In this document: piece by piece, positions 30,555-61,283 of the stretch
How the letters are laid out: each line of letters starts with the position of its first letter
Numbering within the stretch: the stretch's first letter is position 1
Assembly: GCA_965178125.1 (NCBI GenBank)
Contig: OZ237758.1
Coordinates: 372,001 to 436,000, forward strand
Origin: Bilabrum cf. latius
Lineage: Eukaryota
Direction: 5' to 3'
DNA length: 64,000 nucleotides
Position numbers and translations under genes: made by a program
The notes under the pieces: model-generated
What the model saw: only the letters and a program-made list of their open reading frames with translations
What the model was told of the DNA's origin: nothing
Databases searched by the model: none

Positions 30555-32702
30555 ATGGTATCCCTGTTCGACAGCCGCAGGCGGGACGTTGAATGCCAGA
30601 AGACGGATGTCGCGGCCTTTGTCCGAGAGATGCTCCAAATCAGACAAGAACCAAGCCAAGTCACTGAATTGCGCGTATCGGGCGACCTTTCTTCAAAGCC
30701 TGCCATGACTGCAGTTGTGGACCTGCTGGGCGCAAGCACCACCGTGACCGGGCTACACCTGGATGGTACCTGCATCGGGACTGCAGGTGCGCATCAGATT
30801 GCAGCGAGCTTTGCCGAGCTAGGAGATCGCCAGGCCCCGCTTCAATACCTGATCATGTCGCAGAATGCGAGGATCGATACGCCTGGCATTGTGGCGCTGG
30901 CACGAGCAGCCGCCTCCCATCCGACACTCGCAAGTCTCTACCTCTGTGACTGCAGAGTCGGAAACGAGGGCGCGAAAGCTCTTGCGCAAGCATTGACAAG
31001 CTCCACTTCGCTGGTGTCGCTGGTGTTGCAGAAGTGCGGGATCCGCCGAAGCGGAGCCCTGGCTCTTGCAGCCAGCGTTGTGCAGAAGCCCGTCCAGTTT
31101 ATCAACCTGTCCATGAACCCTATCGGCGACGATGCAGCTGCCGCTCTATTGGATGCGATCAGCACTTGCCCGGCTGTAGATGTGGTAGTCTTGGATTTCG
31201 TACGTGGCGGCGACAAGATGGCCGTGTCGCTGGCACGGTGCTTGGGGCCGGACAGCAAGTGCAGGTTGAAAACAGTCAGCATCGAGAACAACAGCATCGG
31301 GCCTACTGGGGTCGATGCACTGTCCCACGCCATTGCTCGCAGTGACAGATTGTCGCGCCTCTATGGCATGTGCGTCGTCCGAACCCTGCAGTCGTACAAG
31401 CAGCTGGAGGCCGCTGTGCAGGCCGTGAGACAGCGGCGACAGCTGGTCGCAAAGACGACCTTCTTGCCAGACCAGGACGATAGATACACTCGGAACGAGC
31501 TTGAGGGCTTCTTTTCCTGGCGCCAGCGGGCCATGGTGCTGCACCGGCGGGCACATGAGGCCAAGAGGGACGCCGGGCGGATGGGGCGGGCCGCGAAGGA
31601 GGGGAGGCCCCTGGAGCTGGGGAAGCGGGCGCGGCTGGGTGTGCTGGGCGGGGGTCTGGATGTGATGGTGGGGGTGTGCGCGGACTGGTCGATACAGAGT
31701 CGGCTGGGCGTGGCAGGGAGCGAGGTGCTGCAGTGCGATGCATTGTGCGCTGCCTGCTTGGGCGGCCACGCTGACTGTGTGGGAGTGCTGCTGGATGCAA
31801 TGGATGGGGCATGTGGCATGCTCGGGGCATTGCGGGAGGGGGCATGGGCGAGGATGGGCGGGGCAGGGGCTTTGTCAGGCTTCAGCTGCGTGGGCCTGTG
31901 CGCGAGGCTGGTGGGTGTGGATGGGTATGAGGGTGTGTGCTTGCGAGTGGGGGCTTGGGTGGGCAGAGTGCGCGGGTAGCTGGATGGGCTTGCGGGTGCC
32001 TGTGTGGGCGTGTGCGATCGTGCGGTGCAGCTGGAGCGGAGGAGGGACAGGCGTCGGGAGGCGATGGGGGCGGACGCGGCTGCCAAGGAGCAGGCGGAGC
32101 TTGACAAGCTCGAGACTGAGACAGCCGCGCATATGAAGGAGGGGGACGATGCGGTGGAGCTGTGGCAGACTATATGCAGCGGTTGCGACTACTGGTACTA
32201 CAAGTGGGAGTAGGTCTTTAGTACGTATTGGGAATGGTCCGATCTGCAGGGCAAGCGGCTGCGTGCAGAGCAGGCCGAGGAAGGGGCGGACGAGGCCGTG
32301 CGTGAGGCGGTGCGTGTGTGGGAGGGCGTGCGGGGGGGGCTGGAGGGACTGAAGCGGGTGCTGGCGAGGCAGCGGGGCTCGGGTGCTGGGGGAGCAGTGG
32401 GATCGGCTGAGAGCGCTGTGGGGCTGGCCGAGTTGGCGCTGGGGAGGGGGGAGGGGGCTGGGCTGCTGGGTTGTGCGATGGAGGGGGTGGGGCGGCATGT
32501 GTCGGGCGAGGCGGTAGACTGGGGCCGCGTGTGGGATGAGGCCAAGGTGGACAGGTGGGCGGTGGGGGTGGGGGTGGATTCAGCTGTGCAAGGGGTGGTG
32601 CGAGAGGTGATGGGTGGGATCAAGGCGGAGGGGGGAGGGCAGGACAATGGAAGCGATGAGAGCGATGGGGAGACGGGCTCTGAGCACAGTACAGATAGCT
32701 AA
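30555..32702 (+). CDS. RI-type LRR protein A, copy 1 (715 aa; ~9 LRRs, ankyrin-like segment, charged helical tail)
   Basis: ~28-aa repeats such as LASLYLCDCRVGNEGAKALAQAL and VQFINLSMNPIGDDAAAALLDAI; ankyrin-like DALCAACLGGHADCVGVLLDA. The frame continues through two TAG (31977, 32211) to TAA. Confidence 0.85.
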
Positions 32703-32870
32703 ACATACCACTGGTCGAGAACCAGTATACCCCAGATGTATTAAGCCTGGTGCCCTGTCTCGCTCTACGCATTTGATCCCAGCTGTTGCGGCGTTCCAGA
32801 GTCCGGGTTCTAGTATCACGCAGAGCGGATGGGGGAACACATAGCTCATGCTCCACACGCATCTCCCCGC

Positions 32871-34670
32871 TCAGGCCGATCTGCCCTCCTCGACCTGCAT
32901 CACTAGCTAGCAGCGTGGTCCCACCCCGTCGATGCAGCCGCTCTTCCTACCTCTCAGCCAGGCCATGTCGCGGTTCCGCCTCTCCGCAAAATGCAGCAGG
33001 CTCACGCCCGTATCCGTGCCTCCGCCTGCGCTCATTTGATCGCCTGACGCGGCCTCCCCATCCTTTGGTGCCTGGTGGCTCTCGGTTTTAACTGGGCCCT
33101 CGCTATCACCGACCCCCTCTTCCTTGCCGATCGCGGCCTCTTTTCCACCACTGCCAGAGCCAGGAGTGGCCTCTTTTCCACCACTGCCAGAGCCAGGAGT
33201 GGCCTCTTTTCCCCCACTGTCAGAGCCAGGGGCGGCCTCTTTTCCACCACTGCCAGAGCCAGGGGCGGCCTCTTTTCCCCCACTGCCAGAGCCAGGGGCG
33301 GCCTCTTTTCCACCACTGCCAGAGCCAGGGGCGGCCTCTTTTCCACCACTGTCAGAGCCAGGGGCGGCCTCTTTTCCACCACTGCCAGAGCCAGGAGTGG
33401 CCTCTTTTCCCCCACTGTCAGAGCCAGGGGCGGCCTCTTTTCCACCACTGCCAGAGCCAGGGGCGGCCTCTTTTCCACCACTGTCAGAGCCAGGGGCGGC
33501 CTCTTTTCCACCACTGCCAGAGCCAGGGGCGGCCTCTTTTCCCCCACTGCCAGAGCCAGGAGTGGCCTCCCTTTCTTCCATGGCCCTCGCTCCCCCTTGT
33601 GCTGCCCCGCCATCTTCGCCCGCGCCGGTCCCGCGTCTAGCCAAACGTGCAGGATTACCATTCAGTATCCCCTCAAGTGAGGACCATGTTCTCCCCTTAT
33701 CGGACGCCAGTGGGAACATGCATGTCAGAGGCTCGCCCTCTGGATGCCACAAGCCAATCTCCACGAAGCACTGCTTGGGGACCGTAGATCTAGCAAGCGG
33801 GGTGAATAAATCAGAGTCAGGAGGGCACGCTTGTATACCCAAAACTGCATTCACACCGTTAGTCACATCCTTTGCTATTTTCTGCAATTCTTGAATCTGC
33901 CTAGAGCCATCCTCCAGCGGATCAGCTTTCCGGCCTGCTGCCGGTGGCATGACGAACTACTCACGAACTCCACTTTCCTCACTGGCAGCCCGCCATGGAT
34001 ACCCTGCCTCGTCTCGTTCTTTGGGTCTGCCCATCTTGAGTAGCGACCCCTTCCCCACTGCTTTGCTTGGATAATTGGAATTGTACTCGTCAACATCTTC
34101 CAGGAACTTCTTGTAGGCTTTCGTTTCGTCCCTGACTAGCAGTGCATGATATGATGACTCAAGGTTTGCAATTGTCTTTGGTTTTGAGCCCGTTGTTCCT
34201 ATTCCTGGTGACAAATCAACGTACAGAGTTGCAGACAGTGGTTGCATCCAGATTTCCAGCAGCTCGCAGTCTGGACCAGGCAGAGTCAATGAGAGATCTT
34301 GCACTATTTCATCGGCACGTCTCATCACTCCCGAATGCGCGTACTCCGCTACGATTTGAGACCCCGGCAAACACGAATATGCTAGCTCTCCACCAGAATC
34401 AGCGCCAGGCTTTCCTGATCGCTTTTCCTTCAGCTATTGTTGGCACTTTAAGGTCACTCTGTCGAATTTCTCGTCTTTGCCTACTTTCAGAGTGTAAGTC
34501 CAGTGTATGCCATCACCACTGCCAGCCGGTCCCGGACGTCGTGTTTTGATAACAAGAAGATACTTGTATACCACGCCGGAGAAGGTCAATGCATTGGCCC
34601 CGTTGTGCTAAAATTGGCAATTCACAATCAAGAAACAGAATAAAAACGCGGTGCGCAGGGCAACCTACAT
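32871..34670 (-). CDS. Partner protein B, copy 1 (599 codons; signal peptide, 13 x EAAPGSGSGGK-type repeat)
   Basis: Begins ATG-TAG-GTT...: M(Q)VALRTAFLFCFLIVNC...GANA|LTF, a signal-peptide-like start. The single frame is broken only by TAG and ends in TGA. A possible in-frame GTGAG..GCAG intron lies at 33005-32895. Confidence 0.72.
33133..33570. repeat. 33-bp coding minisatellite (13 copies) in partner gene B1
   Basis: ggcctcttttccaccactgccagagccaggggc units; 3 copies in B2 and 1 in B3. Confidence 0.95.
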
Positions 34671-34831: not shown

Positions 34832-36973
34832 ATGGTATCCCTGTTCGACAGCCGCAGGCGGGACGTTGAATGCCAGAAGACGGATGTCGCGGCCTTTGTC
34901 CGAGAGATGCTCCAAATCAGACAAGAACCAAGCCAAGTCACTGAATTGCGCGTATCGGGCGATCTTTCTTCAAAGCCTGCCATGACTGCAGTTGTGGACC
35001 TGCTGGGCGCAAGCACCACCATGACCGGGCTACACCTGGATGGTACCTGCATCGGGACTGCAGGTGCGCATCAGATTGCAGCGAGCTTCACCGAGCTAGG
35101 AGATCGCCAGGCCCCGCTTCAATACCTGATCATGTCGCAGAATGCGAGGATCGATACGCCTGGCATTGTGGCTCTGGCGCGAGCAGCCGCCTCCCATCCG
35201 ACACTCGCAAGTCTCTACCTCTGTGACTGTTGAGTCGGAAACGAGGGCGCGAAAGCTCTTGCGCAAGCATTGACAAGCTCCACTTCGCTGGTGTCGCTGG
35301 TGTTGCAGAAGTGCGGGATCCGCCGAAGCGGAGCCCTGGCTCTTGCAGCCAGCGTTGTGCAGAAGCCCGTGCAGTTTATCAACCTGTCCATGAACCCTAT
35401 CGGCGACGATGCAGCTGCCGCTCTATTGGATGCGATCAGCACTTGCCCGGCTGTAGATGTGGCTTCCTTGCGTTGCGTACGTGGCGGCGACAAGATGGCA
35501 GTGTCGCTGGCACGGTGCTTGGGGCCGGACAGCAAGTGCAGGTTGAAAACAGTCAGCATCGAGAACAACAGCATCGGGCCTACTGGGGTCGATGCACTGT
35601 CCCACGCCATTGCTCGCAGTGACAGATTGTCGCGCCTCTATGGCATGTGCGTCGTCCGAACCCTGCAGTCGTACAAGCAGCTGGAGGCCGCTGTGCAGGC
35701 CGTGAGACAGCGGCGGCAGCTGGTCGCAAAGACGACCTTCTTGCCAGACCAGGACGATAGATACACTCGGAACGAGCTTGAGGGCTTCTTTTCCTGGCGC
35801 CAGCGGGCCATGGTGCTGCACCGGCGGGCACACGAGGCCAAGAGGGACGCCGGGCGGATGGGGCGGGCCGCGAAGGAGGGGAGGCCTCTGGAGCTGGGGA
35901 AGCGGGCGCGGCTGGGTGTGCTGGGCGGGGGTCTGGAGGTGATGGTGGGGGTGTGCGCGGACTGGTCGATGCAGAGTCGGCTGGGCGTGGCAGGGAGCGA
36001 GGTGCTGCAGTGCGATGCATTGTGCGCTGCCTGCTTGGGCGGCCACGCTGACTGTGTGGGAGTGCTGCTGGATGCAATGGATGGGGCATGTGGCATGCTC
36101 GGGGCATTGCGGGAGGGGGCATGGGCGAGGATGGGCGGGGCAGGGGCTTTGTCAGGCTTCAGCTGCGTGGGCCTGTGCGCGAGGCTGGTGGGTGTGGATG
36201 GGTATGAGGGTGTGTGCTTGCGAGTGGGGGCTTGGGTGGGCAGAGTGCGCGGGTAGCTGGATGGGCTTGCGGGTGCCTGTGTGGGCGTGTGCGATCGTGC
36301 GGTGCAGCTGGAGCGGAGGAGGGACAGGCGTCGGGAGGCGATGGGGGCGGACGCGGCTGCCAAGGAGCAGGCGGAGCTTGACAAGCTCGAGACTGAGACA
36401 GCCGCGCATATGAAGGAGGGGGACGATGCGGTGGAGCTGTGGCAGACTATATGCAGCGGTTGCGACTACTGGTACTACAAGTGGGAGTAGGTCTTTAGTA
36501 CGTATTGGGAATGGTCAGATCTGCAGGGCAAGCGGCTGCGTGCAGAGCAGGCCGAGGAAGGGGCGGACGAGGCCGTGCGTGAGGCGGTGCGTGTGTGGGA
36601 GGGCGTGCGGGGGGGGCTGGAGGGACTGAAGCGGGTGCTGGCGAGGCAGCGGGGCTCGGGTGCTGGGGGGGCAGTGGGTTCGGCTGAGAGCGCTGTGGGG
36701 CTGGCCGAGTTGGCGCTGGGGAGGGGGGAGGGGGCTGGGCTGCTGGGTTGTGCGATGGAAGGGGTGGGGCGGCATGTGTCGGGCGAGGCGGTAGACTGGG
36801 GCCGCGTGTGGGATGAGGCCAAGGTGGACAGGTGGGCGGTGGGGGTGGATTCAGATGTGCAGGGGGTGGTGCGAGAGGTGATGGGTGGGATCAAGGCGGA
36901 GGGGGGAGGGCAGGACGATGGAAGCGATGAGAGCGATGGGGAGACGGGCTCTGAGCACAGTACAAATAGCTAA
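34832..36973 (+). pseudogene. LRR gene A, copy 2, premature TGA
   Basis: gac tgt TGA gtc at 35231 where all other copies read gac tgc AGA gtc. Confidence 0.8.
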
Positions 36974-37139: not shown

Positions 37140-38612
37140 TCAGGCCGATCTGCCCTCCTCGACCTGCATCACCAGCTAGCAGCGTGGTCCCACCCCGTCG
37201 ATGCAGCCGCTCTTCCTACCCCTCAGCCAGGCCATGTCGCGGTTCCGCCTCTCCGCAAAATGCAGCAGGCTCACGCCCGTATCCGTGCCTCCGCCTGGGC
37301 TCATTTGATCGCCTGACGCGGCCCCCCCATCCTTTGGTGCCTGGTGGCTCTCGGGCTTAACTGGGCCCTCGCTATCACTGGCCCCCTCTTCCTTGCCGAT
37401 CGCGGCCTCTTTTCCACCACTGCCAGAGCCAGGGGCGGCCTCTTTTCCACCACTGCCAGAGCCAGGGGCGGCCTCTTTTCCCCCACTGCCAGAGCCAGGG
37501 GCGGCCTCCCTTTCTTCCATAGCCCTCGCTCCCCCTTGTGCTGCCCCGCCATCTTCGCCCGCGCCGGTCCCGCGTCTTGCCAAACGTGCAGGCGTACCAT
37601 TCAGTATCCCCTCAAGTGAGGACCATGTTCTCCCCTTATCGGACGCCAGTGGGAACATGCATGTCAGAGGCTCGCCCTCTGGATGCCACAAGCCAATCTC
37701 CACGAAGCACTGCTTGGGGACCGTAGATCTAGCAAGCGGGGTGAATAAATCAGAGTCAGGAGGGCACGCTTGTATACCCAAAACTGCATTCACACCGTTA
37801 GTCACATCCTTTGCTATTTTCTGCAATTCTTGAATCTGCCCAGAGCCATCCTCCAGCGGATCAGCTTTCCAGCCTGCTGCCGGTGGCATGACGAACTACT
37901 CACGAACTCCACTTTCCTCACTGGCAGCCCGCCATGGATACCCTGCCTCGTCTCGATCTTTGGGTCTGCCCATCTTGAGCAATTTGCCCAGTGGCACGGC
38001 ATGTTTCAGATCGACACGCTTGTTGTAGGATCTGACCTTGTCTAAGAACCTCTTGTAGGCTTTCGTTTCGTCCCTGACTAGCAGTGCATGATATGATGAC
38101 TCAAGGTTTGCAATTGTCTTTGGTTTTGAGCCCGTTGTTCCTATTCCTGGTGACAAATCAACGTACAGAGTTGCAGACAGTGGTTGCATCCAGATTTCCA
38201 GCAGCTCGCAGTCTGGACCAGGCAGAGTCAATGAGAGATCCTGCACTATTTCATCGGCACGTCTCATCACTCCCGAATGCGCGTACTCCGCTACGATTTG
38301 AGACCCCGGCAAACACGAATATGCTAGCTCTCCACCAGAATCAGCGCCAGGCTTTCCTGATCGCTTTTCCTTCAGCTATTGTTGGCACTTTAAGGTCACT
38401 CTGTCGAATTTCTCGTCTTTGCCCACTTTCAGAGTGTAAGTCCAGTGTATGCCATCACCACTGCCAGCCGGTCCCGGACGTCGTGTTTTGATAACAAGAA
38501 GATACTTGTATACCACGCCGGAGAAGGTCAATGCATTGGCCCCGTTGTGCCAAAAATGGCAATTCACAATCAAGAAACAGAATAAAAACGCGGTGCGCAG
38601 GGCAACCTACAT
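37140..38612 (-). CDS. Partner protein B, copy 2 (490 codons; 3 repeats)
   Basis: ORFs 38376-38573, 37896-38312 and 37176-37889 share a frame joined by TAG. ATG at 38612, TGA at 37140. Confidence 0.75.
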
Positions 38613-38773: not shown

Positions 38774-40915
38774 ATGGTATCCCTGTTCGACAGCCGCAGG
38801 CGGGACGTTGAATGCCAGAAGACGGATGTCGCGGCCTTTGTCCGAGAGATGCTCCAAATCAGACAAGAACCAAGCCAAGTCACTGAATTGCGCGTATCGG
38901 GCGATCTTTCTTCAGAGCCTGCCATGACTGCAGTTGTGGACCTGCTGGGCGCAAGCACCACCGTGACCGGGCTACACCTGGATGGTACCTGCATCGGGAC
39001 TGCAGGTGCGCATCAGATTGCAGCGAGCTTTGCCGAGCTAGGAGATCGCCAGGCCCCGCTTCAATACCTGATCATGTCGCAGAATGCGAGGATCGATACG
39101 CCTGGCATTGTGGCGCTGGCACGAGCAGCCGCCTCCCATCCGACACTCGCAAGACTCAGCCTCTCTGACTGCAGAGTCGGAAACGAGGGCGCGAAAGCTC
39201 TTGCGCAAGCATTGACAAGCTCCACTTCGCTGGTGTCGCTGGTGTTGCAGAAGTGCGGGATCCGCCGAAGTGGAGCCCTAGCTCTTGCAGCCAGCGTTGT
39301 GCAGAAGCCCGTCCAGTTTATCAACCTGTCCATGAACCCTATCGGCGACGATGCAGCTGCCGCTCTATTGGATGCGATCAGCACTTGCCCGGCTGTAGAT
39401 GTGGTAGTCTTGGATTTCGTGCGTGGCGGCGACAAGATGGCCGTGTCGCTGGCACGGTGCTTGGGGCCGGACAGCAAGTGCAGGTTGGACACAGTCATCA
39501 TCGAGAACAACAGTATCGGGCCTACTGGGGTCGATGCACTGTCCCACGCCATTGCTCGCAGTGACAGATTGTCACTCTTCGATTGCATGTGCGTCGTCCG
39601 AACCCTGCAGTCGTACAAGCAGCTGGAGGCCGCTGTGCAGGCCGTGAGACAGCGGCGGCAGCTGGTCGCAAGGACGACCTTCTTGCCAGACCAGGACGAT
39701 AGATACACTCGGAACGAGCTTGAGGGCTTCTCTTCCTGGCGCCAGCGGGCCATGGTGCTGCACCGGCGGGCACACGAGGCCAAGAGGGACGCCGGGCGGA
39801 TGGGGCGGGCCGCGAAGGAGGGGAGGCCCCTGGAGCTGGGGAAGCGGGCGCGGCTGGGTGTGCTGGGCGGGGGTCTGGAGGTGATGGTGGGGGTGTGCGC
39901 GGACTGGTCGATGCAGAGTCGGCTGGGCGTGGCAGGGAGCGAGGTGCTGCAGTGCGATGCACTGTGCGCTGCCTGCTTGGGCGGCCACGCTGACTGTGTG
40001 GGAGTGCTGCTGGACGCAATGGATGGGGCATGTGGCATGCTCGGGGCATTGCGGGAGGGGGCGTGGGCGAGGATGGGCGGGGCAGGGGTTTTGTCAGGCT
40101 TCAGCTGCGTGGGCCTGTGCGCGAGGCTGGTGGGTGTGGACGGGTATGAGGGTGTGTGCTCGCGAGTGGGGGCTTGGGTGGGCAGAGTGCGCGGGTAGCT
40201 GGATGGGCTTGCGGGTGCCTGTGTGGGCGTGTGCGATCGTGCGGTGCAGCTGGAGCGGAGGAGGGACAGGCGTCGGGAGGCGATGGGGGCGGACGCGGCT
40301 GCCAAGGAGCAGGCGGAGCTTGACAAGCTCGAGACTGAGACAGCCGCGCATATGAAGGAGGGGGGCGATGCGGTGGAGCTGTGGCAGACTATATGCAGCG
40401 GTTGCGACTACTGGTACTACAAGTGGGAGTAGGTCTTTAGTACGTATTGGGAATGGTCCGATCTGCAGGGCAAGCGGCTGCGTGCAGAGCAGGCCGAGGA
40501 AGGGGCGGACGAGGCCGTGCGTGAGGCGGTGCGTGTGTGGGAGGGCGTGCGGGGGGGGCTGGAGGGACTGAAGCGGGTGCTGGCGAGGCAGCGGGGCTCA
40601 GGTGCTGGGGGAGCAGTGGGATCGGCTGAGAGCGCTGTGGGGCTGGCCGAGTTGGCGCTGGGGAGGGGGAAGGGGGCTGGGCTGCTGGGTTGTGCAATGG
40701 AGGGGGTGGGGCGGCATGTGTCGGGCGAGGCGGTAGACTGGGGCCGCGTGTGGGATGAGGCCAAGGTGGACAGGTGGGCGGTGGGGGTGGATTCAGATGT
40801 GCAGGGGGTGGTGCGAGAGGTGATGGGTGGGATCAAGGCGGAGGGGGGAGGGCAGGACAATGGAAGCGATGAGAGCGATGGGGAGACGGGCTCTGAGCAC
40901 AGTACAGATAGCTGA
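38774..40915 (+). CDS. RI-type LRR protein A, copy 3 (713 aa)
   Basis: Intact paralogue, two in-frame TAG, TGA stop. Confidence 0.85.
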
Positions 40916-41083
40916 ACATCCCACAGGTCGAGAACCAGTAAACCCCAGATGGATTTAGCTTGGTGCCCTGTCTCGCTCTACGCATTTGATCCCAGCGGTT
41001 GCGGCGTTCCAGAGTCTGGGTTCTAGTATCACGCAGAGCGGATGGGGGAACACATAGCTCATGCTCCACACGCATCTCCCCGC

Positions 41084-49768: not shown

Positions 49769-51910
49769 ATGGTATCCCTGTTCGACAGCCGCAGGCGGGA
49801 CGTTGAATGCCAGAAGACGGATGTCGCGGCCTTTGTCCGAGAGATGCTCCAAATCAGACAAGAACCAAGCCAAGTCACTGAATTGCGCGTATCGGGCGAC
49901 CTTTCTTCAAAGCCTGCCATGACTGCAGTTGTGGACCTGCTGGGCGCAAGCACCACCATGACCGGGCTACACCTGGATGGTACCTGCATCGGGACTGCAG
50001 GTGCGCATCAGATTGCAGCGAGCTTCACCGAGCTAGGAGATCGCCAGGCCCCGCTTCAATACCTGATCATGTCGCAGAATGCGAGGATCGATACGCCTGG
50101 CATTGTGGCGCTGGCACGGGCTGCCGCCTCCCATCCGACACTCGCAAGACTCAGCCTCTCTGACTGCAGAGTCGGAAACGAGGGCGCGAAAGCTCTTGCG
50201 CAAGCTTTGACAAGCTCCACTTCGCTGGTGTTGCTGGTGTTGCAGAAGTGCGGGATTCGCCGAAGTGGAGCCCTAGCTCTTGCAGCCAGCGTTGTGCAGA
50301 AGCCCGTGCAGTTTATCAACCTGTCCATGAACCCTATCGGCGACGATGCAGCTGCCGCTCTATTGGATGCGATCAGCACTTGCCCGGCTGTAGAGAGGGT
50401 AGTCTTGGATTTCGTGCATGGCGGCGACAAGATGGCAGTGTCGCTGGCACGGTGCTTGGGGCCGGACAGCAAGTGCAGGTTGAAAACAGTCAGCATCGAG
50501 AACAACAGCATCGGGCCTACTGGGATCGATGCGCTGTCCCACGCCATTGCTCGCAGTGACAGATTGTCAATCTTCGATTGCATGTGCGTCGTCCGAACCC
50601 TGCAGTCGTACAAGCAGCTGGAGGCCGCTGTGCAGGCCGTGAGACAGCGGCGGCAGCTGGTCGCAAAGACGACCTTCTTGCCAGACCAGGACGATAGATA
50701 CACTCGGAACGAGCTTGAGGGCTTCTCTTCCTGGCGCCAGCGGGCCATGGTGCTGCACCGGCGGGCACATGAGGCCAAGAGGGACGCCGGGCGGATGGGG
50801 CGGGCCGCGAAGGAGGGGAGGCCCCTGGAGCTGGGGAAGCGGGCGCGGCTGGGTGTGCTGGGCGGGGGTCTGGAGGTGATGGTGGGGGTGTGCGCGGACT
50901 GGTCGATGCAGAGTCGGCTGGGCGTGGCAGGGAGCGAGGTGCTGCAGTGCGATGCATTGTGCGCTGCCTGCTTGGGCGGCCACGCTGACTGTGTGGGAGT
51001 GCTGCTGGATGCAATGGATGGGGCATGTGGCATGCTCGGGGCATTGCGGGAGGGGGCGTGGGCGAGGATGGGCGGGGCAGGGGCTTTGTCAGGCTTCAGC
51101 TGCGTGGGCCTGTGCGCGAGGCTGGTGGGTGTGGATGGGTATGAGGGTGTGTGCTTGCGAGTGGGGGCTTGGGTGGGCAGAGTGCGCGGGTAGCTGGATG
51201 GGCTTGCGGGTGCCTGTGTGGGCGTGTGCGATCGTGCGGTGCAGCTGGAGCGGAGGAGGGACAGGCGTCGGGAGGCGATGGGGGCGGACGCGGCTGCCAA
51301 GGAGCAGGCGGAGCTTGACAAGCTCGAGACTGAGACAGCCGCGCATATGAAGGAGGGGGACGATGCGGTGGAGCTGTGGCAGACTATATGCAGCGGTTGC
51401 GACTACTGGTACTACAAGTGGGAGTAGGTCTTTAGTACGTATTGGGAATGGTCCGATCTGCAGGGCAAGCGGCTGCGTGCAGAGCAGGCCGAGGAAGGGG
51501 CGGACGAGGCCGTGCGTGAGGCGGTGCGTGTGTGGGAGGGCGTGCGGGGGGGGCTGGAGGGACTGAAGCGGGTGCTGGCGAGGCAGCGGGGCTCGGGTGC
51601 TGGGGGAGCAGTGGGATCGGCTGAGAGCGCTGTGGGGCTGGCCGAGTTGGTGCTGGGGAGGGGGAAGGGGGCTGGGCTGCTGGGTTGTGCGATGGAGGGG
51701 GTGGGGCGGCATGTGTCGGGCGAGGCGGTAGACTGGGGCCGCGTGTGGGATGAGGCCAAGGTGGACAGGTGGGCGGTGGGGGTGGATTCAGATGTGCAGG
51801 GGGTGGTGCGAGAGGTGATGGGTGGGATCAAGGCGGAGGGGGGAGGGCAGGACGATGGAAGCGATGAGAGCGATGGGGAGACGGGCTCTGAGCACAGTAC
51901 AAATAGCTGA
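49769..51910 (+). CDS. RI-type LRR protein A, copy 7
   Basis: Intact paralogue, two in-frame TAG, TGA stop. Confidence 0.85.
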
Positions 51911-52075: not shown

Positions 52076-53482
52076 TCAGGCCGATCTGCCCTCCTCGACC
52101 TGCATCACCAGCTAGCAGCGTGGTCCCACCCCGTCGATGCAGTCGCTCTTCCTACCCCTCAGCCAGGCCATGTCGCGGTTCCGCCTCTCCGCAAAATGCA
52201 GCAGGCTCACGCCCGTATCCATGCCTCCGCCTGCGCTCATTTGATCGCCTGACGCGGCCTCCCCATCCTTTGGTGCCTGTTGGCTCTCGGTTTTAACTGG
52301 GCCCTCGCTATCACTGGCCCCCTCTTCCTTGCCGATCGCGGCCTCTTTTCCCCCACTGCCAGAGCCAGGGGCGGCCTCCCTTTCTTCCATGGCCCTCGCT
52401 CCCCCTTGTGCTGCCCCGCCATCTTCGCCCGCGCCGGTCCCGCGTCTTGCCAAACGTGCAGGATTACCATTCAGTATCCCCTCAAGTGAGGACCATGTTC
52501 TCCCCTTATCGGACGCCAGTGGGTACATGCATGTCAGAGGCTCGCCCTCTGGATGCCACAAGCCAATCTCCACGAAGCACTGCTTGGGGAACGTAGATCT
52601 AGCAAGCGGGGTAAATAAAGCAGAGTCAGGAGGGCACGCTTGTATACCCAAAACTGCATTCACACCGTTAGTCACATCGATTGCTATTTTCTGCAATTCT
52701 TGAATCTGCCCAGAGCCATCCTCCAGCGGATCAGCTTTCCGGCCTGCTGCCGGTGGCATGACGAACTACTCACGAACTCCACTTTCCTCACTGGCAGCCC
52801 GCCATGGATACCCTGCCTCGTGTCGATCTTTGGGTCTGCCCATTTTGAGCAATTTGCCCAGTGGCACGGCATGTTTCAGACCGACACGCTTGTTGTAGGA
52901 TCTGACCTTGTCTAAGAACTTCTTGTAGGCTTTCGTTTCGCCCCTGACTAGCAGTGCATGATATGATGACTCAAGGTTTGCAATTGTCTTTGGTTTTGAG
53001 CCCGCTGTTCCTATTCCTGGTGACAAATCAACGTAGAGAGTTGCAGACAGTGGTTGCATCCAGATTTCCAGCAGCTCGCAGTCTGGACCAGGCAGAGTCA
53101 ATGAGAAATCTTGCACTATTTCATCGGCACGTCTCATCACTCCCGAATGCGCGTACTCCGCTACGATTTGAGACCCCGGCAAACACGAATATGCTAGCTC
53201 TCCACCAGAATCAGCGCCAGGCTTTCCTGATCGCTTTTCCTTCAGCTATTGTTGGCACTTTAAGGTCACTCTGTCGAATTTCTCGTCTTTGCCCACCTTC
53301 AGAGTGTAAGTCCAGTGTATGCCATCACCACTGCCAGCCGGTCCCGGACGTCGTGTTTTGATAACAAGAAGATACTTGTATACCACGCCGGAGAAGGTCA
53401 ATGCATTGGCCCCGTTGTGCCAAAAATGGCAATTCACAATCAAGAAACAGAATAAAAACGCGGTGCGCAGGGCAACCTACAT
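52076..53482 (-). CDS. Partner protein B, copy 3 (468 codons; 1 repeat)
   Basis: ORFs 53246-53443, 52766-53182 and 52112-52759 are joined by TAG. ATG at 53482, TGA at 52076. Confidence 0.75.
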
Positions 53483-53638: not shown

Positions 53639-55786
53639 ATGGTATCCCTGTTCGACAGCCGCAGGCGGGACGTTGAATGCCAGAAGACGGATGTCGCGGC
53701 CTTTGTCCGAGAGATGCTCCAAATCAGACAAGAACCAAGCCAAGTCACTGAATTGCGCGTATCGGGCGATCTTTCTTCAGAGCCTGCCATGACTGCAGTT
53801 GTGGACCTGCTGGGCGCAAGCACCACCGTGACCGGGCTACACCTGGATGGTACCTGCATCGGGACTGCAGGTGCGCATCAGATTGCAGCGAGCTTTGCCG
53901 AGCTAGGAGATCGCCAGGCCCCGCTTCAATACCTGATCATGTCGCAGAATGCGAGGATCGATACGCCTGGCATTGTGGCGCTGGCACGGGCAGCCGCCTC
54001 CCATCCGACACTCGCAAGTCTCAGCCTCTCTGACTGCAGAGTCGGAAACGAGGGCGCGAAAGCTCTTGCGCAAGCTTTGACAAGCTCCACTTCGCTGGTG
54101 TCGCTGGTGTTGCAGAAGTGCGGGATCCGCCGAAGTGGAGCCCTGGCTCTTGCAGCCAGCGTTGTGCAGAAGCCCGTGCAGTTTATCAACCTGTCCATGA
54201 ACCCTATCGGCGACGATGCAGCTGCCGCTCTATTGGATGCGATCAGCACTTGCCCGGCTGTAGATGTGGTAGTCTTGGATTGCGTGCGTGGCGGCGACAA
54301 GATGGCCGTGTCGCTGGCACGGTGCTTGGGGCCGGACAGCAAGTGCAGGTTGGACACAGTCATCATCGAGAACAACAGTATCGGGCCTACTGGGGTCGAT
54401 GCACTGTCCCACGCCATTGCTCGCAGTGACAGATTGTCACTCTTCGATTGCATGTGCGTCGTCCGAACCCTGCAGTCGTACAAGCAGCTGGAGGCCGCTG
54501 TGCAGGCCGTGAGACAGCGGCGGCAGCTGGTCGCGAGGACGACCTTCTTGCCAGACCAGGACGATAGATACACTCGGAACGAGCTTGAGGGCTTCTCTTC
54601 CTGGCGCCAGCGGGCCATGGTGCTGCACCGGCGGGCACACGAGGCTAAGAGGGACGCCGGGCGGATGGGGCGGGCCGCGAAGGACGGGAGGCCTCTGGAG
54701 CTGGGGAAGCGGGCGCGGCTGGGTGTGCTGGGCGGGGGTCTGGAGGTGATGGTGGGGGTGTGCGCGGACTGGTCGATGCAGAGTCGGCTGGGCGTGGCAG
54801 GGAGCGAGGTGCTGCAGTGCGATGCATTGTGCGCTGCCTGCTTGGGCGGCCACGCTGACTGTGTGGGAGTGCTGCTGGATGCAATGGATGGGGCATGTGG
54901 CATGCTCGGGGCATTGCGGGAGGGGGCGTGGGCGAGGATGGGCGGGGCAGGGGCTTTGTCAGGCTTCAGCTGCGTGGGCCTGTGCGCGAGGCTGGTGGGT
55001 GTGGATGGGTATGAGGGTGTGTGCTCGCGAGTGGGGGCTTGGGTGGGCAGAGTGCGCGGGTAGCTGGATGGGCTTGCGGATGCCTGTGTGGGCGTGTGCG
55101 ATCGTGCGGTGCAGCTGGAGCGGAGGAGGGACAGGCGTCGGGAGGCGATGGGGGCGGACGCGGCTGCCAAGGAGCAGGCGGAGCTTGACAAGCTCGAGAC
55201 TGAGACAGCCGCGCATATGAAGGAGGGGGACGATGCGGTGGAGCTGTGGCAGACTATATGCAGCGGTTGCGACTACTGGTACTACAAGTGGGAGTAGGTC
55301 TTTAGTACGTATTGGGAATGGTCCGATCTGCAGGGCAAGCGGCTGCGTGCAGAGCAGGCCGAGGAAGGGGCGGACGAGGCCGTGCGTGAGGCGGTGCGTG
55401 TGTGGGAGGGCGTGCGGGGGGGGCTGGAGGGACTGAAGCGGGTGCTGGCGAGGCAGCGGGGCTCGGGTGCTGGGGGAGCAGTGGGATCGGCTGAGAGCGC
55501 TGTGGGGCTGGCCGAGTTGGCGCTGGGGAGGGGGGAGGGGGCTGGGCTGCTGGGTTGTGCGATGGAGGGGGTGGGGCGGCATGTGTCGGGCGAGGCGGTA
55601 GACTGGGGCCGCGTGTGGGATGAGGCCAAGGTGGACAGGTGGGCGGTGGGGGTGGGGGTGGATTCAGATGTGCAGGGGGTGGTGCGAGAGGTGATGGGTG
55701 GGATCAAGGCGGAGGGGGGAGGGCAGGACGATGGAAGCGATGAGAGCGATGGGGAGACGGGCTCCGAGCACAGTACAAATAGCTGA
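53639..55786 (+). CDS. RI-type LRR protein A, copy 8
   Basis: Intact paralogue, two in-frame TAG, TGA stop. Confidence 0.85.
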
Positions 55787-55951
55787 ACATACCACAGGTC
55801 GAGAACCAGTATACCCCAGATGGATTCAGCCTGGTGCCCTGTCTCGCTCTACGCATTTGATCCCAGCGGTTGCGGCGTTCCAGAGTCTGGGTTCTAGTAT
55901 CACGCAGAGCGGAGGGAACACACAGCTCATGCTCCACACGCATCTCCCCGC

Positions 55952-56266
55952 TCAGGCCGACCTGCCCTCCTCGACCTGCATCACCAGCTAGCAGCGTGGT
56001 CCCACCCCGTCGATGCAGTCGCTCTTCCTACCTCTCAGCCAGGCCATGTCGCGGTTCCGCCTCTCCGCAAAATGCAGCAGGCTCACGCCCGTATCCATGC
56101 CTCCGCCTGGGCTCATTTGATCGCCTGACGCGGCCTCCCCATCCTGTGGTGCCTGTTGGCTCTCGGTTTTAAATGGGCCCTCGCTATCACTGGCCCCCTC
56201 TTCCTTGCCGATCGCGGCCTCTTTTTCCCCACTGCCAGAGCCAGGGGTGGCCTCCCCTACTTCCAT
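55952..56266 (-). other. 5'-truncated partner gene B
   Basis: Same breakpoint as the other short units. Confidence 0.7.
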
Positions 56267-56388
56267 GGATATCGGTGGCTGTGCGTCCCCCAAGTGGGGT
56301 CCCCCAAGACCTCTGGTCCCCAATCAACATTTCGGCCAGAACACTCACCAAGTATGTTGATTTTGTTTCCGTCTGGATCGGTGTCATA

Positions 56389-58530
56389 ATGGTATCCCTG
56401 TTCGACAGCCGCAGGCGGGACGTTGAATGCCAGAAGACGGATGTCGCGGCCTTTGTCCGAGAGATGCTCCAAATCAGACAAGAACCAAGCCAAGTCACTG
56501 AATTGCGCGTATCGGGCGATCTTTCTTCAAAGCCTGCCATGACTGCAGTTGTGGACCTGCTGGGCGCAAGCACCACCGTGACCGGGCTACACCTGGATGG
56601 TACCTGCATCGGGACTGCAGGTGCGCATCAGATTGCAGCGAGCTTTGCCGAGCTAGGAGATCGCCAGGCCCCGCTTCAATACCTGATCATGTCGCAGAAT
56701 GCGAGGATCGATACGCCTGGCATTGTGGCGCTGGCACGAGCAGCCGCCTCCCATCCGACACTCGCAAGACTCAGCCTCTCTGACTGCAGAGTCGGAAACG
56801 AGGGCGCGAAAGCTCTTGCGCAAGCATTGACAAGCTCCACTTCGCTGGTGTCGCTGGTGTTGCAGAAGTGCGGGATCCGCCGAAGTGGAGCCCTGGCTCT
56901 TGCAGCCAGCGTTGTGCAGAAGCCCGTCCAGTTTATCAACCTGTCCATGAACCCTATCGGCGACGATGCAGCTGCCGCTCTATTGGATGCGATCAGCACT
57001 TGCCCGGCTGTAGATGTGGTAGCCTTGCGTTGCGTACGTGGCGGCGACAAGATGGCCGTGTCGCTGGCACGGTGCTTGGGGCCGGACAGCAAGTGCAGGT
57101 TGGACACAGTCGTCATCGAGAACAACAGCATCGGGCCTACTGGGATCGATGCACTGTCCCACGCCATTGCTCGCAGCGACAGATTGTCAATCTTCGATTG
57201 CATGTGCGTCGTCCGAACCCTGCAGTCGTACAAGCAGCTGGAGGCCGCTGTGCAGGCCGTGAGACAGCGGCGGCAGCTGGTCGCAAAGACGACCTTCTTG
57301 CCAGACCAGGACGATAGATACACTCGGAACGAGCTTGAGGGCTTCTCTTCCTGGCGCCAGCGGGCCATGGTGCTGCACCGGCGGGCACATGAGGCCAAGA
57401 GGGACGCCGGGCGGATGGGGCGGGCCGCGAAGGAGGGGAGGCCTCTGGAGCTGGGGAAGCGGGCGCGGCTGGGTGTGCTGGGCGGGGGTCTGGACATGAT
57501 GGTGGGGGTGTGCGCGGACTGGTCGATACAGAGTCGGCTGGGCGTGGCAGGGAGCGAGGTGCTGCAGTGCGATGCACTGTGCGCTGCCTGCTTGGGCGGC
57601 CACGCTGACTGTGTGGGAGTGCTGCTGGATGCAATGGATGGGGCATGTGGCATGCTCGGGGCATTGCGGGAGGGGGCATGGGCGAGGATGGGCGGGGCAG
57701 GGGCTTTGTCAGGCTTCAGCTGCGTGGGCCTGTGCGCGAGGCTGGTGGGTGTGGATGGGTATGAGGGTGTGTGCTTGCGAGTGGGGGCTTGGATGGGCAG
57801 AGTGCGCGGGTAGCTGGATGGGCTTGCGGGTGCCTGTGTGGGCGTGTGCGATCGTGCGGTGCAGCTGGAGCGGAGGAGGGACAGGCGTCGGGAGGCGATG
57901 GGGGCGGACGCGGCTGCCAAGGAGCAGGCGGAGCTTGACAAGCTCGAGACTGAGACAGCCGCGCATATGAAGGAGGGGGACGATGCGGTGGAGCTGTGGC
58001 AGACTATATGCAGCGGTTGCGACTACTGGTACTACAAGTGGGAGTAGGTCTTTAGTACGTATTGGGAATGGTCCGATCTGCAGGGCAAGCGGCTGCGTGC
58101 AGAGCAGGCCGAGGAAGGGGCGGACGAGGCCGTGCGTGAGGCGGTGCGTGTGTGGGAGGGCGTGCGGGGGGGGCTGGAGGGACTGAAGCGGGTGCTGGCG
58201 AGGCAGCGGGGCTCGGGTGCTGGGGGAGCAGTGGGTTCGGCTGAGAGCGCTGTGGGGCTGGCCGAGTTGGCGCTGGGGAGGGGGAAGGGGGCTGGGCTGC
58301 TGGGTTGTGCAATGGAAGGGGTGGGGCGGCATGTGTCGGGCGAGGCGGTAGACTGGGGCCGCGTGTGGGATGAGGCCAAGGTGGACAGGTGGGCGGTGGG
58401 GGTGGATTCAGATGTGCAGGGGGTGGTGCGAGAGGTGATGGGTGGGATCAAGGCGGAGGGGGGAGGGCAGGACAATGGAAGCGATGAGAGCGATGGGGAG
58501 ACGGGCTCTGAGCACAGTACAGATAGCTGA
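56389..58530 (+). CDS. RI-type LRR protein A, copy 9
   Basis: Intact paralogue, two in-frame TAG, TGA stop. Confidence 0.85.
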
Positions 58531-58698
58531 ACATACCACAGGTCGAGAACCAGGATACCCCAAAAGGATTAAGCCTGGTGCCCTGTCTCGCTCTACGCAT
58601 TTGATCCTAGCTGTTGCGGCGTTCCAGAGTCTGGGTTCTAGTATCACGCAGAGCGGATGGGGGAACACACAGCTCATGCTCCACACGCATCTCCCCGC

Positions 58699-59013
58699 TC
58701 AAGCCGACCTGCCCTCCTCGACCTGCATCACCAGCTAGCAGCGTGGTCCCACCCCGTCGATGCAGCCGCTCTTCCTACCTCTCAGCCAGGCCATGTCGCG
58801 GTTCCGCCTCTCCGCAAAATGCAGCAGGCTCACGCCCGTATCCATGCCTCCGCCTGGGCTCATTTGATCGCCTGACGCGGCCTCCCCATCCTGTGGTGCC
58901 TGTTGGCTCTCGGTTTTAACTGGGCCCTCGCTATCACTGGCCCCCTCTTCCTTGCCGATCGCGGCCTCTTTTTCCCCACTGCCAGAGCCAGGGGTGGCCT
59001 CCCTTACTTCCAT
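58699..59013 (-). other. 5'-truncated partner gene B
   Basis: Same breakpoint as the other short units. Confidence 0.7.
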
Positions 59014-59135
59014 GGATATCGGTGGCTGTGCGTCCCCCAAGTGGGGTCCCCCAAGACCTCTGGTCCCCAATCAACATTTCGGCCAGAACACTCACCAAGT
59101 ATGTTGATTTTGTTTCCGTCTGGATTGGAGTCATA

Positions 59136-61283
59136 ATGGTATCCCTGTTCGACAGCCGCAGGCGGGACGTTGAATGCCAGAAGACGGATGTCGCGGCCTT
59201 TGTCCGAGAGATGCTCCAAATCAGACAAGAACCAAGCCAAGTCACTGAATTGCGCGTATCGGGCGATCTTTCTTCAGAGCCTGCCATGACTGCAGTTGTG
59301 GACCTGCTGGGCGCAAGCACCACCGTGACCGGGCTACACCTGGATGGTACCTGCATCGGGACTGCAGGTGCGCATCAGATTGCAGCGAGCTTTGCCGAGC
59401 TAGGAGATCGCCAGGCCCCGCTTCAATACCTGATCATGTCGCAGAATGCGAGGATCGATACGCCTGGCATTGTGGCGCTGGCACGAGCAGCCGCCTCCCA
59501 TCCGACACTCGCAAGTCTCTACCTCTGTGACTGCAGAGTCGGAAACGAGGGCGCGAAAGCTCTTGCGCAAGCATTGACAAGCTCCACTTCGCTGGTGTCG
59601 CTGGTGTTGCAGAAGTGCGGGATCCGCCGAAGTGGAGCCCTGGCTCTTGCAGCCAGCGTTGTGCAGAAGCCCGTCCAGTTTATCAACCTGTCCATGAACC
59701 CTATCGGCGACGATGCAGCTGCCGCTCTATTGGATGCGATCAGCACTTGCCCGGCTGTAGATGTGGTAGCCTTGCGTTGCGTACGTGGCGGCGACAAGAT
59801 GGCCGTGTCGCTGGCACGGTGCTTGGGGCCGGACAGCAAGTGCAGGTTGAAAACAGTCAGCATCGAGAACAACTGCATCGGGCCTACTGGGATCGATGCA
59901 CTGTCCCACGCCATTGCTCGCAGCGACAGATTGTCGCGCCTCTATGGCATGTGCGTCGTCCGAACCCTGCAGTCGTACAAGCAGCTGGAGGCCGCTGTGC
60001 AGGCCGTGAGACAGCGGCGGCAGCTGGTCGCAAAGACGACCTTCTTGCCAGACCAGGACGATAGATACACTCGGAACGAGCTTGAGGGCTTCTCTTCCTG
60101 GCGCCAGCGGGCCATGGTGCTGCATCGGCGGGCACACGAGGCCAAGAGGGACGCCGGGCGGATGGGGCGGGCCGCGAAGGAGGGGAGGCCCCTGGAGCTG
60201 GGGAAGCGGGCGCGGCTGGGTGTGCTGGGCGGGGGTCTGGAGGTGATGGTGGGGGTGTGCGCGGACTGGTCGATGCAGAGTCGGCTGGGCGTGGCAGGGA
60301 GCGAGGTGCTGCAGTGCGATGCACTGTGCGCTGCCTGCTTGGGCGGCCACGCTGACTGTGTGGGAGTGCTGCTTGATGCAATGGATGGGGCATGCGGCAT
60401 GCTCGGGGCATTGCGGGAGGGGGCATGGGCGAGGATGGGCGGGGCAGGGGCTTTGTCAGGCTTCAGCTGCGTGGGCCTGTGCGCGAGGCTGGTGGGTGTG
60501 GATGGGTATGAGGATGTGTGCTTGCGAGTGGGGGCTTGGGTGGGCAGAGTGCGCGGGTAGCTGGATGGTCTTGCGGATGCCTGTGTGGGCGTGTGCGATC
60601 GTGCGGTGCAGCTGGAGCGGAGGAGGGACAGGCGTCGGGAGGCGATGGGGGCGGACGCGGCTGCCAAGGAGCAGGCGGAGCTTGACAAGCTCGAGACTGA
60701 GACAGCCGCGCATATGAAGGAGGGGGACGATGCGGTGGAGCTGTGGCAGACTATATGCAGCGGTTGCGACTACTGGTACTACAAGTGGGAGTAGGTCTTT
60801 AGTACGTATTGGGAATGGTCCGATCTGCAGGGCAAGCGGCTGCGTGCAGAGCAGGCCGAGGAAGGGGCGGACGAGGCCGTGCGTGAGGCGGTGCGTGTGT
60901 GGGAGGGCGTGCGGGGGGGGCTGGAGGGACTGAAGCGGGTGCTGGCGAGGCAGCGGGGCTCGGGTGCTGGGGGAGCAGTGGGATCGGCTGAGAGCGCTGT
61001 GGGGCTGGCCGAGTTGGCGCTGGGGAGGGGGAAGGGGGCTGGGCTGCTGGGTTGTGCGATGGAGGGGGTGGGGCGGCATGTGTCGGGCGAGGCGGTAGAC
61101 TGGGGCCGCGTGTGGGATGAGGCCAAGGTGGACAGGTGGGCGGTGGGGGTGGGGGTGGATTCAGATGTGCAGGGGGTGGTGCGAGAGGTGATGGGTGGGA
61201 TCAAGGCGGAGGGGGGAGGGCAGGACAATGGAAGCGATGAGAGCGATGGGGAGACGGGCTCCGAGCACAGTACAGATAGTTGA
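59136..61283 (+). CDS. RI-type LRR protein A, copy 10 (last in array, unique 3' flank)
   Basis: Intact paralogue, two in-frame TAG, TGA stop. Sequence after 61283 no longer matches the array spacer. Confidence 0.85.

Follow-up and report, generated by a model that had tools for sequence, protein, structure and literature searches.

Ten tandem leucine-rich repeat genes with diversified strand residues in Bilabrum cf. latius: a candidate protist recognition repertoire

Introduction

The x residues of leucine-rich repeat (LRR) proteins form a ligand-binding concave face, and diversifying selection acts there in plant nucleotide-binding LRR receptors (NLRs) and in lamprey variable lymphocyte receptors (VLRs). 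Plant resistance-gene (R-gene) clusters combine tandem paralogues and exchange among them with an amino-acid excess at exposed x residues and a conserved scaffold. In lamprey VLRs, the repertoire sits in concave-face residues of secreted or membrane-anchored proteins, whose genes are put together in somatic cells out of flanking cassettes. Next to nothing is known in molecular terms about immune-like recognition in free-living protists, where most candidates have been proposed on counts of domains and not on evidence of selection. Here, we describe an array of ten LRR genes at positions 30555-61283 of a 64,000-nucleotide (nt) stretch of Bilabrum cf. latius DNA (contig OZ237758.1, positions 372,001 to 436,000, forward strand; assembly GCA_965178125.1), hereafter the window. 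The evidence points to a set of paralogues that gene conversion or unequal exchange keeps similar and in which selection probably maintains and favours differing binding surfaces in repeats 4, 7, 8, and 9.

Several described systems offer points of comparison. For plants, these are found in passages of the literature on resistance genes of the NLR and Cf-type LRR classes (PMC6771003, PMC3113787). The sections of Zambounis et al. 2012 (PMC3341825) on the LRR-ROCO genes and the NB-ARC-TPR genes of Ectocarpus describe fast-evolving families with diversifying selection on the repeats and candidacy as pathogen receptors. In Tetrahymena, passages of Xiong et al. 2019 (PMC6564038) describe young, species-specific, fast-evolving tandem clusters of LRR genes, with as many as 17 strict tandem inparalogues; the words 'concave' and 'positive selection' each have 0 occurrences in the main text of that paper, and its passages on the clusters make no mention of targeting to x positions. 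According to parts of two further papers, some fungal NLRs govern allorecognition and fungal NLR genes show diversity-enhancing evolution (PMC13449251, PMC10197012). A literature search returned these analogues from Ectocarpus, Tetrahymena, and fungi, and nothing on the LRR family considered here.

Organization of the array

The array comprises ten head-to-tail LRR units, all on the plus strand. With copy 1 as blastn query against the window, ten matches including the query itself were obtained, and the nine further copies share 97.25-98.22% nucleotide identity with it across 2187-2292 nt. The window contains both limits of the array; the sequence upstream of ~30518 is unique, as is that downstream of 61279. 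The open reading frames (ORFs) contain no introns and span 713 or 715 codons, a difference explained by a 6-nt in-frame indel at codons 669-671 (~32559-32567 in copy 1) that sets copies 1, 5, 6, 8, and 10 apart from the shorter copies 2, 3, 4, 7, and 9. In-frame TAG codons occur at codons 475 and 553 in all ten copies, nine of which are otherwise open; codon 716, the stop, reads TGA in seven copies and TAA in the other three. Copy 2 carries an AGA>TGA change at codon 134 (35231-35233) in a frame that remains open to full length, and looks like a recent pseudogene or conversion donor. The array is a real tandem set: ten genes that are paralogues of one another, of which nine are intact. An earlier interpretation made from the letters of the window (the sequence-only reading) had claimed ten near-identical neighbouring copies, and the blastn identities, together with the ATGs and stops located for all ten, bear this out.

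The ten copies are listed below with the amino-acid alleles that they carry in the strands of repeats 4/7/8/9.

30555..32702, plus strand, LRR copy 1: 715 codons; TAG at 31977-31979 and 32211-32213; stop TAA; Pfam LRR_6 6.1e-15; alleles SLYLC/DVVVLDFVR/KTVSI/RLYG
34832..36973, plus strand, LRR copy 2: broken at codon 134; alleles as in copy 4, SLYLC/DVASLRCVR/KTVSI/RLYG
38774..40915, plus strand, LRR copy 3: 713 codons; alleles RLSLS/DVVVLDFVR/DTVII/LFDC
41521..43662, plus strand, LRR copy 4: 713 codons; closest copy to the 2029-nt contig of sequencing run X8; alleles SLYLC/DVASLRCVR/KTVSI/RLYG
44267..46414, plus strand, LRR copy 5: 715 codons; alleles SLCLS/DVVVLDFVH/RTVVI/LFNC
47020..49167, plus strand, LRR copy 6: 715 codons; alleles SLCLS/DVVGLRSVH/DTVVI/RLYG
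49769..51910, plus strand, LRR copy 7: 713 codons; alleles RLSLS/ERVVLDFVH/KTVSI/IFDC
53639..55786, plus strand, LRR copy 8: 715 codons; alleles SLSLS/DVVVLDCVR/DTVII/LFDC
56389..58530, plus strand, LRR copy 9: 713 codons; alleles RLSLS/DVVALRCVR/DTVVI/IFDC
59136..61283, plus strand, LRR copy 10: 715 codons; last unit, with similarity to the other units stopping at 61279; alleles SLYLC/DVVALRCVR/KTVSI/RLYG

A side feature of the flank is a perfect 51-bp tandem repeat of 2.9 copies at 29431-29577, ~1 kb 5' of the array.

Variable patches in four strands

Residues 1-275 of the protein consist of nine repeats, which start at residues 36, 64, 96, 125, 153, 180, 208, 238, and 266 with a spacing of 27-32 residues, each bearing an LxxLxLxxN-like strand. 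Variation among the copies is concentrated in four of these strands, given here for copy 1 with the matching strand (E) of the AlphaFold2 model.

30927..30953, plus strand, strand of repeat 4: codons 125-133; model strand E127-131
31176..31208, plus strand, strand of repeat 7: codons 208-218; model strand E210-215
31266..31286, plus strand, strand of repeat 8: codons 238-244; model strand E240-242
31350..31373, plus strand, strand of repeat 9: codons 266-273; model strand E268-270

The repeat 4 patch varies at x3, x5, and x7 (codons 127, 129, and 131), where the combinations SYC, SCS, SSS, and RSS occur; the intervening leucines 128 and 130 are unchanged, even at fourfold sites. The most variable patch is that of repeat 7, with eight nucleotide haplotypes and seven amino-acid alleles that include D/R at codon 214. 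Repeat 8 alternates between K, D, and R at x2 and between S, I, and V at x5, and repeat 9 occurs as RLYG, LFDC, LFNC, or IFDC. Nine distinct four-patch combinations exist among the ten copies, the single case of sharing being that of copy 4 with the broken copy 2. Within patches, haplotypes can be arranged in one-step series (SYC-SCS-SSS-RSS and DF-DC-RC).

A permutation test quantified the clustering. In the densest 27-nt window, 15 nucleotides are variable, compared with a maximum of 10 in 5000 permutations (0/5000 reach 15). Windows of this size with at least five variable nucleotides form five stretches, of which four (nt 373-385, 607-644, 699-717, and 779-803) are the strands of repeats 4, 7, 8, and 9 and the fifth is a short one in the C-terminal half (nt 1822-1827). 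The 13-mers of the patch haplotypes occur nowhere in the window outside the orthologous places, and no donor cassettes were found there. Targeted mutagenesis resembling that of diversity-generating retroelements was considered and dropped, as the changes involve more than one base and no template repeat was found.

These results largely restate what had been proposed from the letters. The allele table was reproduced letter for letter in all ten copies, as were the nine differing combinations of the nine intact copies and the charge changes (D/R at codon 214 in repeat 7, K/D/R at x2 of repeat 8). The patch coordinates given for copy 1 were correct to within 4 nt (codons 127, 209, 239, and 268 begin at 30933, 31179, 31269, and 31356). 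The permutation test and the dense stretches uphold the claimed clustering of non-synonymous changes in the strands of repeats 4, 7, 8, and 9, while the model strands and the strand register of an RNI-type horseshoe agree with the placement of the variable residues in LRR beta-strands, mostly at x positions.

Probable selection at the x positions

Positions 2, 3, 5, 7, and 8 of the strand motif LxxLxLxxN in all nine repeats (45 codons) were set beforehand as x positions, and positions 1, 4, 6, 9, and 11 were treated as scaffold. Over the ten copies, non-synonymous differences per site (pN) at x positions amount to 0.0895 and synonymous differences per site (pS) to 0.0318, a ratio of 2.81. Elsewhere, pN/pS is 0.28 at scaffold positions, 0.21 at other LRR codons, and 0.33 in codons 276-715. 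The spacers between units differ by 0.032, which equals the pS of the whole ORF; a value of 0.03 is therefore a fair neutral yardstick. Relative to background pS, pN at x positions is raised 2.77-fold, with a bootstrap 95% interval of 1.32-4.86 and 0.36% of replicates at or below 1.

Counts of codons and of minimum steps tell the same story. Amino-acid polymorphism affects 13 of 45 codons at x positions compared with 13 of 230 others (p=2.5e-5), and the proportion of non-synonymous to synonymous-only codons is 13:1 at x positions versus 13:20 elsewhere (p=0.00096). Variation at x positions is confined to repeats 4, 7, 8, and 9 and one site in repeat 5, with repeats 1, 2, 3, and 6 invariant. 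For repeats 4, 7, 8, and 9, at least 23 non-synonymous steps are required on 48.5 x sites, set against 39.5 synonymous steps on 480.9 background sites (odds ratio 9.8, p=6e-11). Within the four strands, non-synonymous and synonymous steps number 23:3 at x positions and 4:4 at scaffold positions (p=0.037).

The elevated non-synonymous change at x positions that the sequence-only reading had anticipated thus stands when measured against the neutral background (2.77), but the excess shrinks to ~1.8-fold, not significant alone, when synonymous change in the strands themselves is the reference. The remaining protein is under purifying selection outside the x positions (pN/pS 0.21-0.33). Taken together, binding-face diversification on a homogenised background is well supported.

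Fold, C-terminal half, and relatives of the protein

Pfam assigns LRR_6 to the protein (6.1e-15; 54.5 bits, cut-off 23.4) and nothing else above threshold. An AlphaFold2 single-sequence model of residues 1-340 contains nine strand-helix units (predicted local distance difference test (pLDDT) 68, predicted template modelling score (pTM) 0.68). Foldseek against the PDB returned 132 matches at E <=0.001, the best being mouse ribonuclease inhibitor (3tsr_E, 1.1e-10), followed by NOD2 (5irl, 5.3e-10, template modelling score 0.66) and NLRP LRR domains including that of NLRP3. In phmmer searches of the PDB, 1dfj_I was matched at 1.7e-10, over the LRR part only. The N-terminal ~275 residues are modelled as an RNI-type alpha/beta horseshoe, a clear but generic fold. 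The axonemal LRR proteins LRRC34 and DRC5 score as well as ribonuclease inhibitor and NOD2 in both Foldseek and phmmer, and the fold therefore gives no pointer to function.

G, A, V, and R abound in residues 276-715 (~440 residues), a half that is probably lineage-specific. No Pfam family reached the cut-off in the C-terminal half (E up to 10 for residues 291-715), and the only sub-threshold matches were Ank_2 (0.024) and ARF7EP_C (2.7). A suspected likeness to a WW domain at residues 535-565 was dropped, since no Pfam WW match appeared even at E up to 10. This half is nevertheless coding, because variable nucleotides in codons 276-715 are distributed 8:14:28 over codon positions 1:2:3 (p=0.0018), pN/pS is 0.33, and an in-frame relative exists. 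The latter, P0044, is an 80-residue fragment that is 88% identical over 66 residues in the same frame (copy 1 residues 446-511), with methionine at the position of the TAG-encoded Q475; it was the sole C-terminal match among the matches listed by phmmer against 1.84 billion representatives. With the protein outside the variable sites under purifying selection, the LRR genes look functional.

The N-terminus is not hydrophobic and no segment is membrane-like, the maximum Kyte-Doolittle mean over 19 residues being 1.79 compared with 2.86 in a neighbouring transporter. Neither NACHT nor NB-ARC turned up when Pfam was searched with the complete protein (E up to 1) and with residues 291-715 (E up to 10). 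The Pfam scans and the hydropathy profile accord with the sequence-only reading, which had reported no signal peptide and no NACHT or NB-ARC, and the protein is probably soluble and cytosolic.

Relatives are distant. The search of 1.84 billion representatives gave 10548 matches, and the LRR ones listed are 23-41% identical over the LRR part only. Pfam domains in eight of 150 listed LRR relatives comprised LRR_6 in 8/8, TPR in 1/8, and NACHT in 0/8, with no functional label. Among 8000 candidate proteins of 393-1252 residues, no close relative was found at E <=0.001, and a scan of metagenome contigs yielded 49 pattern matches, 0 of them confirmed.

Exchange between copies and integrity of the assembly

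A four-gamete test on 61 informative sites found 1144 of 1830 pairs incompatible, with a Hudson-Kaplan minimum number of recombination events (Rm) of at least 31. Exchange spans the entire LRR gene, including synonymous and C-terminal sites; as incompatible pairs lie along the full gene, the patches are not specially shuffled. Copies 1, 2, 4, and 10 carry identical alleles at patches 4, 8, and 9, so the combinations are only partly free. A further sign of exchange is that the split produced by the 6-nt indel does not follow the patch alleles. Combinatorial shuffling, as proposed from the letters, is retained in the sense that alleles are recombined among copies; it is neither specific to the patches nor fully free.

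Assembled contigs (Logan) of public sequencing runs covering the locus (12 runs from 6 studies) were compared with the array. Contigs of four other runs contain the same alternative letters and end exactly at the patches, the behaviour expected of an assembly graph built from near-identical copies. In run X8, which bears a different organism label, one contig of 2029 nt covers the four patches and agrees with copy 4 at 21 of the 24 letters listed, and another runs from 61279 into 58531, which marks a tandem junction of 2749 nt. The 6-nt deletion is also present in X8 contigs. Depth in run X4 is 257-327 for array contigs against 48.9 for the contig of the neighbouring transporter, which fits a multi-copy array and gives no copy number. 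These comparisons lend partial support to the view that the patch variants are not private to this assembly. As for RNA, 0 of the 12 runs are recorded as such; three were guessed to be RNA, of which X5 is marked as probably DNA. Depth in run X7 is 32 for the spacer and ~43 for the LRR gene, which is no basis for inference on transcription.

Genetic code and interleaved genes

The window has a G+C content of ~60%, and several of its genes are read through TAG. A minus-strand ORF at 61435..63108 contains seven TAG codons and, when read through, matches Pfam Sugar_tr over positions 6-447 of 452 (4e-107); one of these codons aligns with the glutamine that GLUT3 and GLUT4 have in their 'GTLNQL' stretch. 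Another ORF, 1531 codons long and with an RBP_receptor domain (21044..25639, plus strand), has seven TAG and zero TAA or TGA. More generally, long single-exon ORFs such as 61435-63108 (minus strand), 21044-25639 (plus strand), and 2-3385 (minus strand) carry 5-7 TAG each and no TAA, and no intron is required in the Sugar_tr ORF, the RBP_receptor ORF, or the LRR genes. Because TAG-containing ORFs read through to full Pfam domains with no need for introns, TAG is judged from these alignments to be a sense codon, glutamine at the conserved GLUT site, with TAA and TGA terminating the LRR genes. The organism thus has a TAG-only reassignment in a ~60% G+C genome with few or no introns. The glutamine assignment on which the sequence-only reading had relied is independently backed by the Sugar_tr ORF, the GLUT alignment, and the 1531-codon ORF, and the LRR array serves as a second, independent marker of this code in the organism. 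No tRNA genes were found in the window, hence a suppressor tRNA-Gln(CUA) is not demonstrated.

The spacers between LRR genes are of two kinds. Three of nine are long (1728-2129 nt), and each holds a minus-strand gene of 468-599 codons.

32871..34670, minus strand, interleaved gene A: 599 codons (TAG read as glutamine); hydrophobic N-terminus; 13 copies of a GSGSGGKEAAP-type 11-residue repeat
37140..38612, minus strand, interleaved gene B: 490 codons; 3 repeat units
52076..53482, minus strand, interleaved gene C: 468 codons; 1 repeat unit

Members of this family have a signal-peptide-like start and a Gly/Ser-rich repeat of 33 bp (11 residues), and none matched Pfam. In the case of gene A and copy 2, the interleaved gene starts 161 nt from the next LRR ATG in divergent orientation. 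The other six spacers are short (601-605 nt):

40916-41520, 43663-44266, 46415-47019, 49168-49768, 55787-56388, and 58531-59135, short spacers

They match the first ~470 and the last 116 nt of a long spacer, so that all they keep is the interleaved gene's 3' end, with one repeat unit, plus the final 116 nt before the LRR ATG. On this alignment, the short spacers are read as deletion forms of the long ones, and the ancestral unit was probably a pair of one LRR gene and one interleaved gene. At ~34030-34110 (minus strand), gene A is set apart from the otherwise near-identical B and C by an 80-nt stretch in which ~42 nucleotides differ and a 3-nt indel occurs; the stretch has the look of a replaced block or of an island of hypervariability. 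Elsewhere in the window, tandem-repeat rows recur at an offset of 7591 nt (4240-4867/11831-12458 and 6640-9596/14231-17187), which suggests a ~7.6-kb segmental duplication with a degenerate 204/408-bp repeat array (14.4 copies, 72% matches).

Interpretation of the array

In the reading that we regard as probable, gene conversion or unequal exchange would hold genes and spacers ~97-98% alike and recombine variants over the whole unit, while selection would favour amino-acid differences at the solvent-facing x positions in the strands of repeats 4, 7, 8, and 9. Conservation would prevail in the leucine/valine scaffold, in the remaining repeats, and in the C-terminal half, and the array would amount to a small germline set of nine binding surfaces, each carried by the same constant body. 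A variable ligand would then be touched directly by the concave face that repeats 4 and 7-9 form, and the C-terminal half may act as a constant output or anchoring part. The likeliest class of ligand would be a fast-evolving foreign or selfish protein, supplied by viruses, intracellular bacteria, or mobile elements. An immune role of these candidate receptors is plausible on sequence grounds.

Several observations pull the other way. Synonymous change is itself raised in the four strands, with 7 steps on ~28 sites compared with 39.5 on 481 (odds ratio 3.7, p=0.0096), and the excess over this local synonymous rate is only 1.7-1.8-fold, resting on 3 synonymous steps and not significant alone. 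The variable nucleotides of the patches are spread 10:11:9 over codon positions, which would also fit hotspots or imported diverged sequence. Three of the 18 amino-acid-variable patch codons are scaffold (211, 269, and 271), with the conservative changes V/A, L/F, and G/C. Recombination is pervasive throughout the gene instead of being confined to the patches. Pairwise measures on ten recombining paralogues are non-independent, and the pN/pS values are counts and not the product of a likelihood site model. Finally, the structural model is of moderate confidence, and the concave face was assigned from strand register and established LRR geometry, not from exposure measured on coordinates. Raised linked synonymous diversity is expected when differing alleles are held for long against homogenisation. 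It resembles the pattern at the peptide-binding codons of the major histocompatibility complex.

Part of this evidence would also suit an array without adaptive diversification, in which unconstrained patches accumulate changes at local mutation hotspots or receive short conversion tracts from diverged paralogues. A local N/S near 1-2 on few synonymous steps, the raised synonymous diversity of the patch strands, the even spread over codon positions, and the ~75-nt block replacement in the interleaved gene, which shows block import at the locus, all lean in that direction. We nonetheless hold this explanation to be quite unlikely, as the variation tracks the alternation of x and scaffold positions (127, 129, and 131 vary, leucines 128 and 130 are fixed) and N/S within the same strands is 0.38 at scaffold codons versus 1.81 at x codons. 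In repeats 1, 2, 3, and 6 the x positions show no variation, and therefore x positions are not unconstrained as such; moreover, point mutation accounts better than block import for the one-step haplotype series, and the 13-mers of the patches recur nowhere else in the window. The combinations themselves could be spurious if fewer true haplotypes, or two allelic arrays, had been stitched into chimeric copies. Units of 2.7 kb that are 97-98% alike are a hard assembly case, and an Rm of at least 31 is very high. However, contigs assembled from other studies' runs show the alternative letters again, a single 2029-nt contig of run X8 holds the copy-4-type combination, the units vary in a regular way in spacer length and in the 6-nt indel, and nine open copies hold frame through 713-715 codons, all of which makes an artefact very improbable.

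A different question is what the diversified surfaces would bind. The same array under the same selection could recognise a self ligand, be it in conspecific non-self discrimination, mating or kin recognition, or a conflict of the selfish-element-and-antidote kind, perhaps involving the interleaved gene. Three units hold that gene, with its signal-peptide-like start and a 161-nt divergent region shared with an LRR copy, and gene A departs from B and C at ~42 nt within 80 nt; allorecognition by fungal NLRs offers a precedent (passages of PMC13449251 and PMC10197012). Yet six of nine spacers have lost most of the interleaved gene beside intact LRR genes, and the pairing is therefore not obligatory. 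The LRR protein looks cytosolic whereas the interleaved product looks secreted, and position is the sole link between them, which leaves a self ligand unlikely in our judgement. Rather doubtful, too, is the broader proposal of an undescribed intracellular recognition system, which would consist of a germline repertoire of RNI-type LRR proteins free of NTPase, TIR, and death-fold domains, with concave faces diversified against fast-evolving invaders, a C-terminal half that signals or executes, and a linked, co-amplified gene for a polymorphic secreted protein.

The reading of an exchange-homogenised array with selected binding surfaces is readily addressed: within 31 kb, intron-free genes display the residues under selection, the scaffold that stays constant, and nine natural variants, which makes the question directly testable. 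Even if its role is non-immune, the array is a clean example of binding-surface diversity held against strong homogenisation by gene conversion.

Comparison with known systems

Candidate assignments to described receptor classes were considered and rejected. An orthologue of ribonuclease inhibitor, a protein of ~15 repeats that binds secretory RNases tightly, is not in keeping with nine repeats, an unrelated C-terminal half, and 16-22% identity to ribonuclease inhibitor chains. The scans for NACHT and NB-ARC were empty, and since the NTPase domain is missing, the protein is not an NLR or other STAND receptor. Somatic assembly of the VLR type was set aside because the ten germline genes are complete and full length, with no cassette-like 13-mers in the window and no signal peptide.

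With ribonuclease inhibitor, NOD2, and the NLRPs, the array protein shares the alpha/beta horseshoe of 28-29-residue repeats; it differs from ribonuclease inhibitor and NOD2 in its 15-22% identity, nine repeats instead of ~15, an unrelated C-terminal half of 440 residues, and the lack of NACHT. Outside plants and animals, the nearest precedents are the LRR-ROCO genes of Ectocarpus, the Tetrahymena clusters, and fungal NLRs. Ectocarpus provides a parallel in that it is neither plant nor animal and its receptor candidacy was likewise argued from sequence evidence alone. That study describes shuffling of one-repeat exons and a ROCO GTPase, whereas the array has intronless ORFs, nine fixed repeats, and no GTPase domain, and its diversity arises from point changes in four strands and whole-gene exchange. 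The Tetrahymena clusters resemble it as tandem arrays of LRR genes in a protist; unlike the array genes, the Tetrahymena genes, as described in passages of that study, have 90-bp exons, phase-2 introns, and varying repeat number.

In its mode of evolution, the array is like plant resistance-gene clusters, with which it shares tandem paralogues, exchange, and an x-position excess with a conserved scaffold. Its protein differs from plant resistance proteins in having no NB-ARC/NTPase, TIR, CC, signal peptide, or kinase, and its repeats are of the RNI type (27-32 residues) rather than the 24-residue type of plant LRRs. The array copies are also far more alike (97-98%) than those of plant clusters, and the host is a microbial eukaryote that reads TAG as glutamine. 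In that sense, the array may work in the manner of a plant R-gene cluster without being an NLR. The principle is familiar; the case is clean, readily testable, and located in a poorly explored branch of life.

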